A stretch of DNA of 23,029 bases from a virus (taxonomy: Duplodnaviria; Heunggongvirae; Uroviricota; Caudoviricetes), in IMG/VR virus record IMGVR_UViG_2703718857_000002, one strand, 5' to 3'. Each line of letters begins with the position of its first letter. The stretch's first letter is position 1. The notes beneath the pieces are model-generated. The model worked only from the letters and a program-made list of their open reading frames with translations, was not told where the DNA came from and did no database searches. Position numbers and translations under genes: made by a program. Below are positions 4,924 to 20,842 of this stretch, one piece after another.

Positions 4924-5187
4924 ATGATTTTAATAAATAAATACACTCCTCCAACGCAGGAAGATTTAGCCAGACTGAAATCCGCAATAAACTACTCCGG
5001 AAACCAAATGGCAGGGCTCGCAGGTGTAGCCAGCGATAGCCAATGGCGGAAATACACTGGCGGAGAGAGCCCCAGGGTAATGTCAAGACACATACTGTTT
5101 TATATTGCAGCTCAGCTTGTTCTGTCTGATGAGCAACTTAACAATGTAATAAATAAAATGCGCGATATTGGCGCGGAGATAAAATAA
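4924..5187 (+). CDS. Small XRE-type helix-turn-helix protein, 87 aa; putative regulator of the downstream acyltransferase
   Basis: ATG at 4924 with AAGAG-type Shine-Dalgarno (the ORF track starts at GTG 4900). Segment ...GNQMAGLAGVASDSQWRKYTGGESPRVMSRHILFYIAAQL... fits an XRE-like HTH pattern. Its stop overlaps the acyltransferase ATG (TAATG). Confidence 0.55.
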   Translation: MILINKYTPPTQEDLARLKSAINYSGNQMAGLAGVASDSQWRKYTGGESPRVMSRHILFYIAAQLVLSDEQLNNVINKMRDIGAEIK

Positions 5188-6278
5188 TGCTTGGCCTAAT
5201 AAGGTTTTTTTTGGCATCGTGCGTCATTGCTTTTCACTTAACGGCTCGCATACCTGCACTTGGCAACTTTGCAGTGAATTGCTTCTATGTTATCAGTGGT
5301 TTTTTAATAACATACATTTTGCATGAAACATACAAGTTCAACTTCTCTATGTTTTGGAAAAATAGAATACTGAGGTTATTCCCGGCATATATATTTTTTC
5401 TCGTCATGGGCTTTCTTATTATAAAATTAATTCCATCCGCAAAGGAATTCCACTCAAACTGGACAGGCAATTTCTTACCTGGAGATTTATTAGGAAACCT
5501 CTTAATCTTCCCCTGGGCTTTCCTTTCTGATAATGCTGTAGCAAATCCATTCGGTGCCTTTTCATCCATTTATCACTTTGCTATTGATGGTAATAGATTC
5601 AGAATAGTCACATCATCATGGTCAGTGGGTGTTGAGATAACATGTTATTTTTTATTGTGGCTTTTCATAGCCCGAAATAAATTTACAGCCATTACGTCGA
5701 TTCTGCTTTCACTGCTTTATCATGCTTACGTATATGTAGTACACCATTCTTTTGATATGGCGTATTTCCCATTCCTTGCTGCAACACTTCCTTTTAGCAT
5801 GGGTTCTCTGGGTTATTTTGCCCATAGAAAGTTCAAAGCTATGTATCTTTCTCCACACAAAGCTTTTTTAATAACATTTATTTGCATCGGGATTTTTATT
5901 ACCAATTGGTATTTATATACAATTAATGCATTAGGTCAGTACAACATAATACTTTACTACACCAATAATGTAATAGCATTGTTTACAACCCTGGTATTAT
6001 TAAAAATAAAGACAAACATACATCTTGAGAAAATACTCAAGTGGTTTGGTGACCTGGCCTATCCAATTTTTCTTTGTCAATATTTTGGTGGATTTCTAGC
6101 ATGGCTTGCTATTGGTGGTGAAAATCGTGGCTTATCCATCTTTTTATTAGGCTACCCAATATCAATTGCACTTGGGATCGTTTGTGTAATATTAATAGAC
6201 AAGCCACTAATTAAAATTAGAGCAAAAATAAGGGCGGACGCTCAAAGCAAAAATAATCAGGAAAACTCTTCAAGGTAA
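5187..6278 (+). CDS. Acyltransferase family 3 (AT3) integral membrane protein, 363 aa; probable O-antigen/LPS O-acetyltransferase (Oac/OafA-like)
   Basis: N-terminal His in the first hydrophobic segment (...VIAFHLTARIPALG...) and the VNCFYVISGFLIT motif typical of AT3 acyltransferases; multiple hydrophobic segments throughout. Gene body is visibly AT-rich, roughly one-third G+C by eye. The LPS substrate is inferred from the prophage tail-fibre context. Confidence 0.8.
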   Translation: MLGLIRFFLASCVIAFHLTARIPALGNFAVNCFYVISGFLITYILHETYKFNFSMFWKNRILRLFPAYIFFLVMGFLIIKLIPSAKEFHSNWTGNFLPGDLLGNLLIFPWAFLSDNAVANPFGAFSSIYHFAIDGNRFRIVTSSWSVGVEITCYFLLWLFIARNKFTAITSILLSLLYHAYVYVVHHSFDMAYFPFLAATLPFSMGSLGYFAHRKFKAMYLSPHKAFLITFICIGIFITNWYLYTINALGQYNIILYYTNNVIALFTTLVLLKIKTNIHLEKILKWFGDLAYPIFLCQYFGGFLAWLAIGGENRGLSIFLLGYPISIALGIVCVILIDKPLIKIRAKIRADAQSKNNQENSSR

Positions 6279-9327: not shown

Positions 9328-9905
9328 ACCTGACTCTCTGTTTTTTCGCTTATGATCGTGCTATCGCCGGACTGAACTTTTTTAACGTCATGGTCATGAT
9401 CGTTGTGAGCATCCCGCAGCGCTTTGAGCGTTGAATTGTTCGTCTCGCAGTTATCGATGATGTCACCCGTCACCAGGAGTTTGGGGGTAACCAGCTTTAC
9501 CTGTTCCGTTGCCGTCGCGGTGATGTTTCTGGCATTATTGATCTCTACATCTTTGCCTTTCGCATCAATGAAAATTCCCTCCTCGGTCAGATGAATATTC
9601 ATCCCCTGCTGGTTATAGACCACGGTTTCGCCTGGCTTAAGCCCGGTATACCGGAAGCTTTGATGGTTAGAGGCAATGACGACAGGACTGGAGCGGTCCC
9701 CGCCGAGAAAGGCAATAAGCACATCCGATCCCGCCGGTAACCCCGATGAAAAACCAAAATCAGAGAGCCGTGGGGCGCTGGCCACTTCCAGCGGAGTCTG
9801 GTACTGGATTTCCTGCACAACCCCGCTATCTTTCTGCGTGGTAATACGGCCAATGCCCAGCATGCCGGCGATGCGCGTGGCCGATTTCTTTAAATTTTGA
9901 TTCAT
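9324..9905 (-). CDS. Baseplate central spike / assembly protein V (Mu gp45 / P2 gpV-like), 193 aa
   Basis: Size, synteny, and a C-terminal His-rich motif HNDHDHD (nt 9387..9407) of the kind that coordinates metal at the tip of contractile-tail spikes. Confidence 0.7.
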   Translation of the reverse strand: MNQNLKKSATRIAGMLGIGRITTQKDSGVVQEIQYQTPLEVASAPRLSDFGFSSGLPAGSDVLIAFLGGDRSSPVVIASNHQSFRYTGLKPGETVVYNQQGMNIHLTEEGIFIDAKGKDVEINNARNITATATEQVKLVTPKLLVTGDIIDNCETNNSTLKALRDAHNDHDHDVKKVQSGDSTIISEKTESQV

Positions 9906-10777
9906 TGGTTTAGTCCGGGTATTTGCTGGTAGAAAGCATAAGGCTGGACAGCGAAAGCCTCCGGGGGCATCAGATAAAGGCGCGCATGGGTGCCGTCACT
10001 GTCTCTGATATAAGTCACCTCTGCGATAAGCAATTCGGTGTCAGGCAGCTGCAGACTCGGGATGTTGACCGGGATAAGCGTATTCGGCTCCCATAATTTC
10101 CCGGATTTATCGCGCCAGGAATCAATCGTCACCGTTAACTGACGGGAACGGCCGTATCGGCGGTTCATCTCCCAGTCAATCGCTCGCTGAGCCTGTTGTG
10201 AAGCCATCAGTGTACTTTCAACAATAATGATCCGTTTTCGGTAACGCATACTGGCCGCCTCAGGATCGCGGGCCGTCGCCAGCGTCACCGAATCATAAGC
10301 CGTATCTGGCGAGAATCCTGCAATCGGCGAAATGCTCATCGATACGCCGACGTAATCAGAAAAGCGGTCAGCCATCGAACGGCGGTAATAAGCCTGTTCG
10401 ATATTTACCCCTTCTGCGATACCGCTGGCCGCGCGCTTTGTCCCCACCCGGGTCAGAAATAAGTTACCGTCAGGCTGATCGTAATAAAGCAATGCCGACC
10501 AGCGGGAGACACGATCAAGTATTTCCTGTGGCGATTCCCCCCAGTTCAGGGAAAATTGCGGAACTTTCACCAGATCATCAACGTCTGTACTTACGCCAAT
10601 GTTGTAATGGGATGCGAGGCGGGAGGCTATATCAAGCGCATTACTGTTATTGATGACGTTATTTGGCCATTCAGCAGAGCAATCAACGAGATCTGCGCAC
10701 TTACTGCGGCCTGAGGCTCTGACTTCATGGCGCGAACGGGAAATAGCAGGCGACCAGTCATCAACATACCCCGTCAC
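9902..10777 (-). pseudogene. 5'-truncated baseplate hub gene (Mu gp44 / P2 gpD family), 291 codons retained
   Basis: Frame opens at a GTG at 10777 that overlaps the portal stop codon in a different frame. C-terminal region ...LLIAEVTYIRDSDGTHARLYLMPPEAF resembles the conserved end of gpD-family proteins. Full-length homologues are about 380 aa (from memory), implying loss of roughly 90 N-terminal residues. Confidence 0.5.
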
Positions 10778-11931
10778 TACCAGGTACCGGATGAGAAATT
10801 ACGCAATACTGCAGACTCGAAAACCTCAAAGTTGCTGTAAGGGCGGGCAGCGTTGACCGTTGTTATTCTCTCCCCTGGATAAAGGATCGGCATACGGGCG
10901 CCATTCTGCAGCGTCAAACGGCGATCATTATGAAACTCTGCACGACCATCCTGGTATGCTCCCAATCCCTCTTCGAAGTTTTCCCCCAGCGCGGACTGGA
11001 TCATTTCGGGATCGTATGGAGACTCAATATACGCGGCGAAGATAGCATTCAGAATTGCTGCTTCCAGCTCGCTCTGGTCGTACTTCACCAGCATCTTCAG
11101 ACGTTGCACTACTGGAGTCAGAATGCCATTCCCCCGATGCTGAGCTCCACGCTCATGGTCAAAGTCGTGCACAACGTGCGGGCGCCCCCATGCGGTTTCG
11201 CGCGGGATTCGTCGCCATGTCATTGTTTTGGCGCCACTCCACCAGTCACCGATATGTGCTTCACGTATGTGATAAGCCACAGGTGCGCCGTCAGCATCAA
11301 TTTCAACGCCGCCGCGGATATTCGGCATATCAAAATTCTGCTGCGGGTTACTGAGTCTGTCGGGATCAACAACCTGCACCGTCGTGGCATAACGCCCCTT
11401 ACCTGGTCCAAGGCGATCGGTGCGATACTGAAGCACCATCAGGGCATCGCCATCAATCAGCTTGTGGCGAAAGGCCAGACGCAACATTTGTGGAACGGTT
11501 AGCTTGCGCTCAACGTCACAATAACGGCCTGTGTCGTATGCCCAGGTTCTCCAGTGGGAAGCGAGTGCTTTTCCGTACTCTTCCGCCCATACTGCGTCAA
11601 AACTTTTATTACCTGTCATCATCCGTAATACACGATAGTCAGGCTTCATGATCGGACGGAAATTGGCGCCGACCGCATTATCAAGCAGGCGAGTTATGGC
11701 ACCATTGGCCCATCCATCATTTCGGACCAGATCCCGCGCACGGGAAACTATACGGTCACGGTAGATATTAATTTCGTTATCCGGTGACCATAGTGCGGGC
11801 TGCCAGTTCGCCAGTTGATCGCTGAAGGAATCCGCGGCGTCATATGGCACCCGGCTACCGCCCGTCAACATGCTGGGTTTTGGTGCCTGATAAGGTCTCC
11901 CGTCAGGACCAAGGATTTGCACTTTATTCAT
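10777..11931 (-). pseudogene. 3'-truncated portal gene (lambda gpB family), 384 codons retained
   Basis: N-terminus MNKVQILGPDGRPY, the VERKLT motif and ...AILNAIFAAYIES... parallel lambda gpB; the ORF stops at ...NFEVFESAVLRNFSSGTW, where lambda-family portals continue for about 140 more residues (from memory). Start overlaps the gpW-like stop by 1 nt. Confidence 0.65.
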
Positions 11932-14335: not shown

Positions 14336-14834
14336 TCAGCACCTCTGTCATCCTGTCCGCCGGCACATTCAGATCGGCGGCTATCAGCGGTGCCACGCGT
14401 GAAGGCCAGTTCAGCCAGGCATCACGCTGCTGGCGAAAGGCGTTAAACAGAACCTCCTCGGCGATGGCCAATTCAATTGTCTGGCCGCTGTCTTTTTCAT
14501 ACTGGAGCTTTGCCTGCAGGGCCATGTAATTTTCACGGATCCGCGCGGCCTCTTCCCTGGAAAGGACTGCACCTTCTGTAAACATTATCTGGCGAACGGT
14601 TTCATCAATTTCATCGTCGCCATCATTCCGGGGTGCTGGGGCTTTTTTCTTCTTCGCGTTTGATGCCCGCGGATCTTTTCCATCACGGTTTTTCTTCAGC
14701 GCGGCATCGCTCGCCTCAACATCAATCAGGTCGCCATCCATGACGATAAACCGACCAGCCTTGATCCATCGGCCAATAGTCTTGCGATCGACGCCTGAAT
14801 GTTGCGCGTACTGACTCTGGTTCATCGTGGTCAT
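14271..14834 (-). CDS. Terminase small subunit (lambda Nu1-like), 187 aa
   Basis: N-terminal winged-HTH region MNQSQYAQHSGVDRKTIGRWIKAGRF resembles Nu1. Overlaps the 5' end of the large-subunit gene by 65 nt, as in lambda. Start could be ATG 14834 or the ATG 3 codons downstream. Confidence 0.8.
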   Translation of the reverse strand: MTTMNQSQYAQHSGVDRKTIGRWIKAGRFIVMDGDLIDVEASDAALKKNRDGKDPRASNAKKKKAPAPRNDGDDEIDETVRQIMFTEGAVLSREEAARIRENYMALQAKLQYEKDSGQTIELAIAEEVLFNAFRQQRDAWLNWPSRVAPLIAADLNVPADRMTEVLIEHVHKHISVLGEPEFNPAED

Positions 14835-14981
14835 GGGACATCACCTGGGACATTTTTGGGGTGGGACATTTACCTGGGACATTTTTTCAATGTCCCACAC
14901 GAATGTCCCACTGGAATAAATGGAATAATCCGTGCTGGCTCTGGCGTGGCTGGCGATCCCTTGGGGTGGGACATGGGACAC
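14834..14981. repeat. Array of TGGGACA(T/C) repeats (5 direct TGGGACAT plus 1 TGGGACAC, 2 inverted copies) immediately upstream of the terminase small-subunit gene; candidate cosB-like terminase-binding region
   Basis: TGGGACAT at 14834, 14846, 14862, 14875 and 14967; TGGGACAC at 14974; inverted ATGTCCCA at 14890 and 14903. Location matches where lambda-type phages carry Nu1 binding sites next to cos. Confidence 0.5.
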
Positions 14982-15071
14982 AAAATAAAAGTTTGTAGCT
15001 AGGAAAACACTGCGGCGCGCAATGCCCGTGCCTTACAAAAGGCTCAGGAAGGACCCAAAACCCCTGGGGGG

Positions 15072-15713
15072 CTATCTGGCCGAGCTGATCGCCTCAGCAA
15101 TCGCCTGGTGCAGCGCTGAGGGTAACAATGCGTTGGCCATGGTGTTTGCCCTGTCCATATAGCCGAGCGTTGGTTTGACTGGAAGCGAGTCTCCAAACCG
15201 AATGAGCAATTTTGGTGCAGGTTGCTTAATCTTGTCTCTGCGCGTGCCGTTCGGAGAACGTTTTGCCCGTTTCTTCCCTTTTTTGGTTTTCGGCTTTTTT
15301 CTCTGCCACACGGCATTCACGCCACCAACGTCACCAATAAATACGTTTGGCTTTGCTTTGAGCTGAGAGAGCTTATTACGCGGCAGGTTGCCGTATTTAT
15401 TAAGCTTTATGTCTTTCGGGTTAAGCAAAGCACTACCATTAAGCTTGTGCTCTCCGCCGAACTCGAAGGGTTCAAGGTAACCAGCAGCAGTATCACGAAC
15501 AAACACCTTCGCACGAAGGCTGTTTTTCCTGGCACCAACTGACCCAACCGATTTAACTGTAAAAGGTGTTGGATTATCCAGATTCCGCTCAAATGCTGTT
15601 TTTTGGGCCGCTTCTATCTGGCGAACCACTTTAGTCATAGCCTGGGCAGTCGCAAACGGTATTTGCTTCTGCAGCTGTCTTAACTGACTGGAAAGGTCCT
15701 TAAGCGTTGCCAT
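15072..15713 (-). CDS. Hypothetical basic protein, 213 aa
   Basis: ATG at 15713 with AGGTGG Shine-Dalgarno. Contains a strongly basic tract QRKKPKTKKGKKRAKRSPNGTRRDK. Located between the lysis cassette and cos; no family recognised. Confidence 0.55.
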   Translation of the reverse strand: MATLKDLSSQLRQLQKQIPFATAQAMTKVVRQIEAAQKTAFERNLDNPTPFTVKSVGSVGARKNSLRAKVFVRDTAAGYLEPFEFGGEHKLNGSALLNPKDIKLNKYGNLPRNKLSQLKAKPNVFIGDVGGVNAVWQRKKPKTKKGKKRAKRSPNGTRRDKIKQPAPKLLIRFGDSLPVKPTLGYMDRANTMANALLPSALHQAIAEAISSAR

Positions 15714-15762
15714 ATCATTGACCACCTAGTTACAGTAATTAAGATCAGTTTGCTCATAAAGT

Positions 15763-15791
15763 TGACAATAAAAAACCGCCCGTAGGCGGTT
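15763..15791 (-). terminator. Rho-independent terminator after the 134-aa moron
   Basis: Minus-strand hairpin AACCGCC-TACG-GGCGGTT followed by TTTTTATTG; overlaps the stop codon of the 134-aa gene. Confidence 0.7.
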
Positions 15792-16194
15792 AGTCGAACA
15801 TTTTATCAAGTTGCTTAGCTAGAGCTCGGTTAAACAGCTCCTTCGAAACTGTCATCAGCGTGCCCATACTGGCATCTTTGAATCCGGTTTTTAATGTTGC
15901 CCAAACCTCTTTGTTACGGAGAGCATCCAAGAAGTCATGCCCCATCGCGGTCAATCGCAAGGGCATTACAGCCCAGTGAGTCATTCCGTCTAAAGACTGA
16001 ATAGCACCAAAGCCGGGCTCCCCATCACTCCTGATAATCAGCCCTCTATCCTCAAGCAAACGCATATGAAACACAAATGTGTCAGTTTCACAATTGAACC
16101 CTAAATCCTTTAATCGAATAATATCGGTATCAGGTGAATCCGATGCCTCGAAAGCCTCGAGCAAACCTTTAAGGTATTCTTGATCTATTTGCAT
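15790..16194 (-). CDS. Hypothetical protein, 134 aa (moron between Rz and cos)
   Basis: ATG at 16194 with GGAGGGG Shine-Dalgarno and its own terminator. Translation MQIDQEYLKGLLEAFEASDSPDTDIIRLKDLGF...; no family recognised with confidence. Confidence 0.65.
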   Translation of the reverse strand: MQIDQEYLKGLLEAFEASDSPDTDIIRLKDLGFNCETDTFVFHMRLLEDRGLIIRSDGEPGFGAIQSLDGMTHWAVMPLRLTAMGHDFLDALRNKEVWATLKTGFKDASMGTLMTVSKELFNRALAKQLDKMFD

Positions 16195-20709: not shown

Positions 20710-20842
20710 GAATTAGCGATGTTTTATTACGCCGCTATTTGTTTCTGCTGACAAAGCTCCTGTATCAAACCCGAAACAGCAGATCGCTTATCTGGCACTC
20801 AAATACTGGGCGCGCCTGTATTGCCCTGCAGTTGTTCTTGGT

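Follow-up and report, generated by a model that had tools for sequence, protein, structure and literature searches.

The Ne1 superfamily of tail completion proteins (TCPs) includes lambda gpZ (PF06763), HK97 gp10 (PF04883), SPP1 gp16.1 and 80alpha gp51, and its members range in size from 56 to 255 aa (PMC4362835; PMC11099176). Genes of this type are essentially universal in phages with this type of neck (PMC4362835; PMC11099176), and gpZ, gp16.1 and gpS have been shown to be necessary for productive head-tail joining and for correct delivery of the DNA (PMC11661146; PMC4362835; PMC11099176). 80alpha gp51, the equivalent of gpZ, gp16.1 and HK97 gp10, is a monomer located inside the neck lumen. 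It caps the packaged DNA at its end, joins the three tape-measure N-termini via beta-sheet and helical-bundle contacts, and interacts mainly with the head-side connector and less with the tail wall (PMC11661146). An extra beta domain at the apex has been reported for lambda gpZ, and according to the authors of the 80alpha study the low-copy lumenal protein of lambda is lost under symmetric averaging (PMC11661146). The corresponding genes typically belong to the neck cluster (Ad1-Hc1-Ne1-Tc1), which precedes the tail terminator and tube genes. This placement is not obligatory: it has been lost for Mu gpG (Mup31) and P2 gpS, and the Mu G gene is located between the head genes F and I (Table 1 of PMC11099176).

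Here we analyzed a window, that is, the whole stretch of 23,029 nucleotides of caudovirus DNA in IMG/VR record IMGVR_UViG_2703718857_000002, with respect to the interval between the lysis cassette and cos. The genes of this region all lie on the minus strand. In transcription order, a NinG-like gene (19196-18528) and the Q antiterminator gene (18490-17708) are followed by the holin gene, the lysozyme gene (17134-16694; PF00959), and the Rz gene with an embedded Rz1 ORF (16697-16227; PF03245). The first-pass annotation had placed two ORFs between Rz and cos, which we could confirm: ORF134 (134 aa from ATG) is located at 16194-15790, and ORF213 (213 aa from ATG), the last gene before cos, at 15713-15072. 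Both had been regarded as moron-like genes, with host fitness, exclusion or defence as candidate functions. Lambda-type morons such as bor indeed sit in the post-lysis region. Our results lead to a different reading, which we consider likely: ORF213 is the phage's own TCP of the gpZ/HK97 gp10/Ne1 superfamily, with ORF134 as optional cargo. A DNA search of the phage collection returned just a 71-nt match in the Rz end as a near-identical stretch, and the relatives described below were recovered by protein-level searches.

Downstream of ORF213, a 237-nt non-coding stretch extends to the gene for the small terminase subunit. Within it, 46 nt past the ORF213 stop codon, lies a cosN-like 12-mer, GCATTGCGCGCC (15014-15025, minus strand). 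This putative cohesive-end sequence agrees in all 12 nt with the cohesive end (5' overhang) that was mapped experimentally in the related Serratia phage BZS1 (PMC7556043), and the original assignment of cos was therefore accurate. A pattern search revealed eight TGGGACA/TGTCCCA heptamers (14834..14980) between cosN and the start of terS, which are candidate binding sites for the small terminase subunit and may thus represent a cosB-like element. The terS gene (14834-14271) matches phrog_57 (E 2.6e-34) and is followed by terL (14335-12203), a 710-aa ORF of the long, roughly 700-aa type. The latter is placed as lambda gpA is, with a gpW-family gene and then the portal gene following it, and is near-identical to an E. 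coli prophage gene annotated as 'phage terminase large subunit family protein'.

Translation from a GTG further upstream (15725) would extend ORF213 to 217 aa. The protein contains 41 K+R versus 14 D+E in total. Its long Lys/Arg-rich tract, correctly pointed out earlier, corresponds to KKPKTKKGKKRAKRSPNGTRRDKIKQPAP (residues 139-167, 15213..15299, minus strand), in which 14 of 29 residues are Lys or Arg. In contrast to the Ne1 superfamily, the window protein itself stayed below the Pfam thresholds, and NCBIfam gave no hit for ORF134 or ORF213 either. The statement that neither protein belongs to a family that can be named did not hold: PHROG 1924, 'minor tail protein', matches ORF213 with an E value of 3.5e-62, and ORF134 belongs to Pfam DUF2513 (see below). 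A second PHROG, phrog_27 ('tail completion or Neck1'), matched ORF213 weakly (E 1.5e-3).

Homologues of ORF213 are found in Citrobacter phage phiNP (82% identity) and Serratia phage BZS1 (71%), as well as in Dinoroseobacter phage R4C, the Rhodobacter phages RcCronus, RcRhea and RcSaxon, the Ralstonia YO phages, Acetobacter phage phiAP1, and Yersinia phage vB_YpM_39. An exhaustive HMMER search retrieved 1221 family representatives at E<=1e-3, each standing for a cluster at 50% identity. The family is uniformly basic (median net charge, +29), and a basic surface is also common to the Ne1 superfamily. When 114 family members were inspected, Minor_tail_Z (PF06763) was found in 27 of them at E<=1 (best E 1.9e-7) and HK97-gp10_like (PF04883) in a single one. 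Comparison of lambda gpZ with the family by hhalign gave an E value of 6.8e-5 and a probability of 63%, covering the N-terminal helix only (71 columns). Furthermore, the database names among the homologues include one 'minor tail protein Z' and one 'HK97 gp10 family'. The ORF213- and ORF134-family profiles returned nothing meaningful when compared with PDB sequences. Taken together, the profile links to the Ne1 superfamily (Minor_tail_Z, phrog_27) are weak; the sequence evidence for ORF213 as a TCP points the same way as the predicted structure, weakly. A comparison of ORF213 with Mu gpG by hhalign was not significant (probability 1%) and thus uninformative as to a link between the two.

A feature that distinguishes part of the family from the Ne1 superfamily is the Lys/Arg-rich loop. 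In each of the 20 enterobacterial sequences that were aligned, it comprises 28-30 residues, compared to a family median of 9, and insertions of this length are rare outside the enterobacterial members. The loop is therefore regarded as a clade-specific insertion, predicted to be disordered, that would be an elaboration and not the defining feature of the family.

The AlphaFold2 model of ORF213, which was based on a 114-sequence alignment, reached a pLDDT of 87 and a pTM of 0.73. It consists of an N-terminal helix (residues 4-44; 41 residues) and a C-terminal helix (185-212; 28 residues), with a beta-rich insert and the low-confidence Lys/Arg loop in the middle (pLDDT about 60 for residues 141-160). 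Long N- and C-terminal helices connected by a loop with a beta-hairpin, the hallmark of the TCP fold, are thus present in the model. More specifically, ORF213 shares with the Ne1 superfamily the predicted arrangement of a long bent N-terminal helix, a loop/beta region and a long C-terminal helix. The model also matches the extra apex beta domain of gpZ (PMC11661146), and the size of the protein fits the superfamily range (PMC4362835; PMC11099176). The sole structural neighbor of the model ranked as significant was a bona fide TCP, 80alpha gp51 (9mu2 chain P); the Foldseek match of the model to 9mu2_P was not significant (E 5.4).

We subsequently compared the position of the gene in two sets of 80 IMG/VR loci each, a close set (70-100% identity) and a distant set (34-54% identical to phage R4C). 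Both sets were retrieved through ORF213 homologues, and the presence of the gene is thus given. In the close set, TerL was encoded within 3.5 kb downstream in 70 of the 72 loci that comprise at least 2.5 kb of downstream sequence. In the distant set, a gpA-type TerL was found within 3.5 kb in 64 of 80 loci and at 3.5-5.2 kb in a further five, while two loci were too short to judge. Nine contigs of this set end within 800 nt of the ORF213 homologue, eight of them 42-106 nt past it, as expected for a cos end. In the annotated phages, the homologue is in every case either the last gene on the linear map or located directly upstream of terS/terL, and it is present in all three intact annotated relatives (phiNP, BZS1 and the prophage of E. 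coli 23CRST046). By contrast, ORF213 follows the last lysis gene detected at distances between 57 nt and over 4 kb. Loci L066 and L071 are outliers in which no TerL was seen downstream, and L066 carries reversed ORFs past the gene; both are taken to be rearranged or prophage-edge cases.

The locus context of ORF213 is therefore fixed; sporadic presence would be expected of a moron, and ORF213 shares with the lambda-type morons nothing but its position. Because of this fixed position next to cos and the terminase genes, together with the predicted TCP fold, we conclude that ORF213 is a core late gene and not a moron.

In contrast to the typical arrangement in the Ne1 superfamily, the ORF213 gene does not lie between the head-closure and tail-terminator genes, but between the lysis cassette and cos/terS, where it precedes cosN. 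Mu gpG and P2 gpS are likewise encoded outside the neck cluster (PMC11099176), and the tail modules of phiNP and BZS1 are Mu-like. In contrast to these two examples, ORF213 has been displaced to a different site, in front of cos, and this is also observed in the siphoviruses R4C and RcCronus. The intact relatives combine lambda-like head genes (Nu1, A, W, portal, S49 protease, decoration, capsid, FII-like) with a Mu-like contractile tail; gpW represents Ad1 and the FII-like protein represents Hc1. Between the capsid and sheath genes, phiNP and BZS1 encode a DUF7210 protein, the FII-like head-closure protein, a 181-aa protein (phrog_6774), and a DUF2635 protein. By sequence methods, none of the neck proteins of phiNP, BZS1 and the 23CRST046 prophage matches the Ne1 families or the ORF213 profile. 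The 181-aa phrog_6774 protein was excluded as a TCP by single-sequence hhalign. Its comparison with Mu gp37 by BLASTP was uninformative (phiNP protein, E 0.23), and its role as tail terminator is an assumption from its position. In phiNP and BZS1, the canonical slot is thus filled by no other recognizable TCP. Since this slot is empty and TCPs are near-universal, ORF213 is the obvious candidate for this role. Most likely, ORF213 therefore represents an unannotated TCP in a non-canonical but strictly conserved gene position. The same would most likely apply to its lineage, in which the TCP gene is located outside the neck cluster as the last gene before cosN, the head genes are lambda-like (Nu1/A/W/B/C/D/E/FII), and the tails are Mu-like contractile or long non-contractile.

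The tight association with cos also suggests another function, namely that of a DNA-packaging accessory factor that acts at cos together with the terminase, for example by binding or bending cos DNA or by protecting the right cohesive end. The linkage of ORF213 to cosN-TerS-TerL (gpA type) is near-absolute over a wide divergence, and it is independent of the tail type, being found in the myoviruses BZS1 and phiNP and in the siphoviruses R4C and RcCronus. In many genomes, about 42-106 nt separate the stop codon of the gene from the physical end of the DNA, and the protein is extremely basic. Unlike the Ne1 superfamily in general, the ORF213 family is thus co-inherited with the gpA-type terminase across siphovirus and myovirus tails; that it moves with the head/packaging module is not expected of a tape-measure binder and argues against a TCP. 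The virion data agree with a packaging factor as well. Mass spectrometry of BZS1 virions listed 13 proteins, and the homologue p72 was absent (PMC7556043). The cryo-EM analysis of R4C counted 12 structural proteins, and gene 049, the ORF213 homologue, is not among them (PMC10276861); the R4C genome paper does not discuss gene 049. The absence of p72 is weak evidence, since the portal, gpW, the FII-like protein (Hc1) and the tape measure were also missed in BZS1 (PMC7556043). In R4C, symmetric averaging would hide a lumenal protein of low copy number. A packaging factor would not account for the predicted structure, whose sole neighbor ranked as significant is a bona fide TCP, or for the matches of family members to Minor_tail_Z, and it would leave the canonical TCP slot empty in intact relatives, where a near-universal role must be filled (PMC4362835). 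Furthermore, the 80alpha TCP likewise touches both the DNA end and the adaptor on the head side, and by analogy these contacts alone could explain the co-inheritance with the head/cos module. We therefore consider a packaging factor unlikely and prefer the assignment of ORF213 as a TCP.

As a TCP, one or a few copies of ORF213 would reside inside the tail/neck lumen, by analogy with the 80alpha neck. [quoted passage not shown] The protein would make tails competent for head joining and would route the DNA correctly at infection. Its basic surface, plus the Lys/Arg loop in the enterobacterial members, may contact DNA or an acidic lumen wall. With respect to expression, transcription from a Q-dependent late promoter would cover the lysis genes and then ORF213; on circular or concatemeric DNA, it would run on over cos and reach the genes for packaging and the head. 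It is also conceivable, if rather improbable, that the TCP is locked at about 45 nt from cosN by specific recognition of the right cohesive end, with the apex domain capping the 12-13-nt 5' overhang. If true, TCP, cos and gpA-type terminase would evolve jointly, as a single 'DNA-end module' that can be exchanged and combined with contractile or non-contractile tails. This would provide a sequence-specific role for a class of proteins thought to cap DNA ends non-specifically, and would explain the extra apex domain of gpZ-type TCPs.

The second gene, ORF134, is preceded by a GGAGG ribosome-binding site (16203-16199), read from the sequence, 4 nt upstream of the ATG. A terminator scan and sequence inspection identified an intrinsic-terminator-like hairpin (AACCGCC-TACG-GGCGGTT plus T-run; 15766..15791, minus strand). 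Its 7-bp stem-loop with five G-C pairs (15791-15774) overlaps the ORF134 stop codon and is followed by TTTTTATTG. The strong RBS and the own terminator ascribed to this gene by the first-pass annotation are thus both present. To pass this terminator into ORF213, late transcription would depend on Q antitermination. No sigma-70-like promoter was detected upstream of ORF134 or ORF213 on the minus strand.

ORF134 matches DUF2513 (PF10711) over residues 4-110 with 41.3 bits, compared to a gathering cutoff of 29.6, and all 115 listed homologues carry PF10711. Its predicted fold, a winged-helix core with C-terminal helices, is shared with DUF2513, a small winged-helix family of the MarR/PadR type. 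ORF134 would most likely act as a small DNA-binding regulator. A literature search on DUF2513 retrieved no paper, and the neighborhoods of the homologues contained no ligand-binding or partner gene.

In contrast to ORF213, the distribution of ORF134 is sporadic. It is present in 14 of 80 close-relative loci, always with at least 96% identity. This includes one locus (L078) in which ORF213 is just 76% identical, and high identity of ORF134 next to a diverged ORF213 indicates cassette exchange. Both phiNP and BZS1 lack ORF134; the same slot holds a sialyltransferase-annotated gene and a DNA polymerase III theta homologue. Elsewhere, Klebsiella prophages encode ORF134 homologues behind their lysis genes and in front of a different terminase module (HNH/Terminase_4/HK97-type TerL), phage Chlobot carries one adjacent to xis/int, and others occur in non-phage neighborhoods, unrelated phages and islands. 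ORF134 therefore behaves like optional cargo at a variable site that separates the lysis cassette from the proposed TCP gene.

The predicted function of ORF134 would also be compatible with a dedicated regulator of the phage's late/packaging genes, which would make it part of the core program and not cargo. It has a winged-helix DNA-binding fold and is encoded in the late operon, directly upstream of morphogenetic genes, and the Klebsiella prophages again place a homologue just upstream of a packaging module. Such a role is hardly compatible with the fact that phiNP, BZS1 and 66 of the 80 close relatives lack ORF134, although ORF213-TerS-TerL is retained in these 66, nor with the homologues near the Chlobot xis/int genes and in non-phage contexts. 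A core regulator is thus quite improbable, even more so than a packaging function of ORF213.

GC content is lower over both ORFs (0.444 for ORF134 and 0.492 for ORF213) than in their neighbors (0.52-0.57), and ORF134 has the lowest GC and GC3 in the region (0.444 versus about 0.55 in the flanks). Together with the post-lysis position, a known cargo site whose slot holds other cargo in phiNP and BZS1, and with the terminator behind ORF134, this would fit the original view that both genes are morons for host fitness, exclusion or defence. But ORF213 occurs in essentially all relatives analyzed, at a fixed position, and has the predicted fold of a virion protein. Even where the slot is near-empty, as in one locus (L041), its homologue begins 57 nt after Rz. 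Moreover, a separate promoter on the coding strand was detected for neither gene, and searches with the PADLOC defence models gave no hit for ORF134 and a chance-level match only for ORF213 (E 0.034, 11 bits). That both genes are morons is therefore very improbable, the least probable of all explanations considered here. The moron-like character may be maintained for ORF134, which shares with the lambda-type morons the variable post-lysis slot, the deviant GC content, the terminator and the sporadic distribution. It differs from them by the lack of a detected promoter, of a membrane or secretion signal, and of a match to a defence family. For ORF213, it cannot be maintained in view of its fixed position and TCP-type predicted fold. 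Homology to conserved structural or packaging proteins, which had been named as the outcome that would refute the moron assignment, was accordingly found for ORF213, but not for ORF134.

Assignment of ORF213 as a TCP would also offer a name for its large family (more than 1200 clusters at 50% identity), whose members are 'hypothetical' in PGAP and in most phage records. For at least one phage solved by cryo-EM (R4C), the family is missing from the list of structural proteins. The rule that the TCP gene lies just before the tail terminator gene would then fail in the whole lineage with gpA-type terminases, siphoviruses included. This has a bearing on neck-module classifiers and on any mining of defence hotspots that counts the Rz-to-cos interval as cargo. 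It would also correct an appealing interpretation: an unannotated gene for a basic protein, found where morons classically reside, most likely encodes a core component of the virion. ORF134, in turn, represents one more DUF2513 winged-helix gene that serves as mobile phage cargo. Overall, this is an ordinary finding, and the gene order is a modest curiosity.

Finally, the intact prophage of E. coli 23CRST046, which is 99.9% identical, served as a reference for the window. The prophage in the window is a deletion remnant without head and tail genes. Relative to the 23CRST046 prophage, 10.8 kb are missing from mid-portal to a baseplate gene (junction at about 10784/10785), including the genes for the protease, decoration protein, capsid, neck, sheath, tube and tape measure. 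A further 9.2 kb of the replication/immunity/RecE region are also missing (junction at about 20762-20764). With the head and tail genes lost, there is no virion left to whose assembly the intact ORF213 could contribute. Few E. coli genomes carry the element: of 5426 complete genomes, 63 gave a match, which in 21 cases covered at least 80% of the query.

The 12-nt sequence GCATTGCGCGCC at positions 15014-15025 is identical to the experimentally determined 5' cohesive end of the Serratia phage BZS1. It is probably the cosN of the window prophage. It is located 46 nt past the stop codon of ORF213, the minus-strand gene (15713-15072) encoding a predicted tail completion protein. A similar spacing of 42-106 nt separates the stop codon of the ORF213 homologue from the physical end of the linear contig or genome in distant relatives, namely the siphoviruses R4C (L004) and RcCronus (L003) as well as the loci L097, L141, L144, L151, L158, L161, L166, and L172. 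Between cosN and the start codon of the terminase gene terS (minus strand, 14834-14271), the heptamer TGGGACA/TGTCCCA is present in eight copies (14834-14980), six in one orientation and two in the other; the last of the eight overlaps the terS ATG. These heptamers are candidate binding sites for the small terminase, comparable to cosB.

The distance between the ORF213 homologue and terS is about 800 nt in many enterobacterial relatives, compared to about 240 nt in the window, which suggests that these relatives carry an insertion of approximately 560 nt near cos. In BZS1, two small ORFs are found in this gap. Only two of the 72 close-relative loci, L066 and L071, lack a gene for the large terminase (TerL) downstream of the ORF213 homologue. 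Since the ORFs directly after this homologue are reversed in L066, this locus may represent a prophage that has decayed or undergone rearrangement.

Neck gene order is generally scrambled in the phage lineage to which R4C belongs. In R4C (MK882925), a siphophage solved by cryo-EM, the tail terminator is encoded by gene 018, which follows the tail-fibre gene 017 rather than lying near the genes for the stopper and the tube (009, 010). The tail completion protein-like product of R4C gene 049 is not among the 12 structural proteins in the published list.

The window prophage itself is a deletion remnant. Relative to the intact prophage of E. coli 23CRST046 (L173), which is 99.9% identical, 10.8 kb are missing at ∼10784-10785, extending from the portal C-terminus through the protease, capsid, neck, sheath, tube, and tape measure genes into a baseplate gene. 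The truncated "portal" ORF (384 aa, 10777-11931) abuts a baseplate-hub fragment (9902-10777). Another 9.2 kb, comprising the replication, immunity, and RecE region, are missing at ∼20762-20764.

Genes of the DUF2513 family, to which the optional cargo gene ORF134 (minus strand, 16194-15790) belongs, travel together with DUF2560 genes in the Klebsiella prophages L176-L178 (3680-4402), flanked on one side by the lysis cassette and on the other by a packaging module of the HNH/Terminase_4/TerL type. Klebsiella phage ST846-OXA48phi9.2 (L010) carries this gene pair too. As a candidate moron or serotype-conversion gene, the O-acetyltransferase gene on the opposite (plus) strand (5187-6278) is more typical than either ORF134 or ORF213; it matches phrog_3333 ("O-acetyltransferase") and, more weakly, an O-antigen acetylase family. 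It adjoins the tail-fibre genes, and BZS1 carries comparable acetylase genes in the same place.
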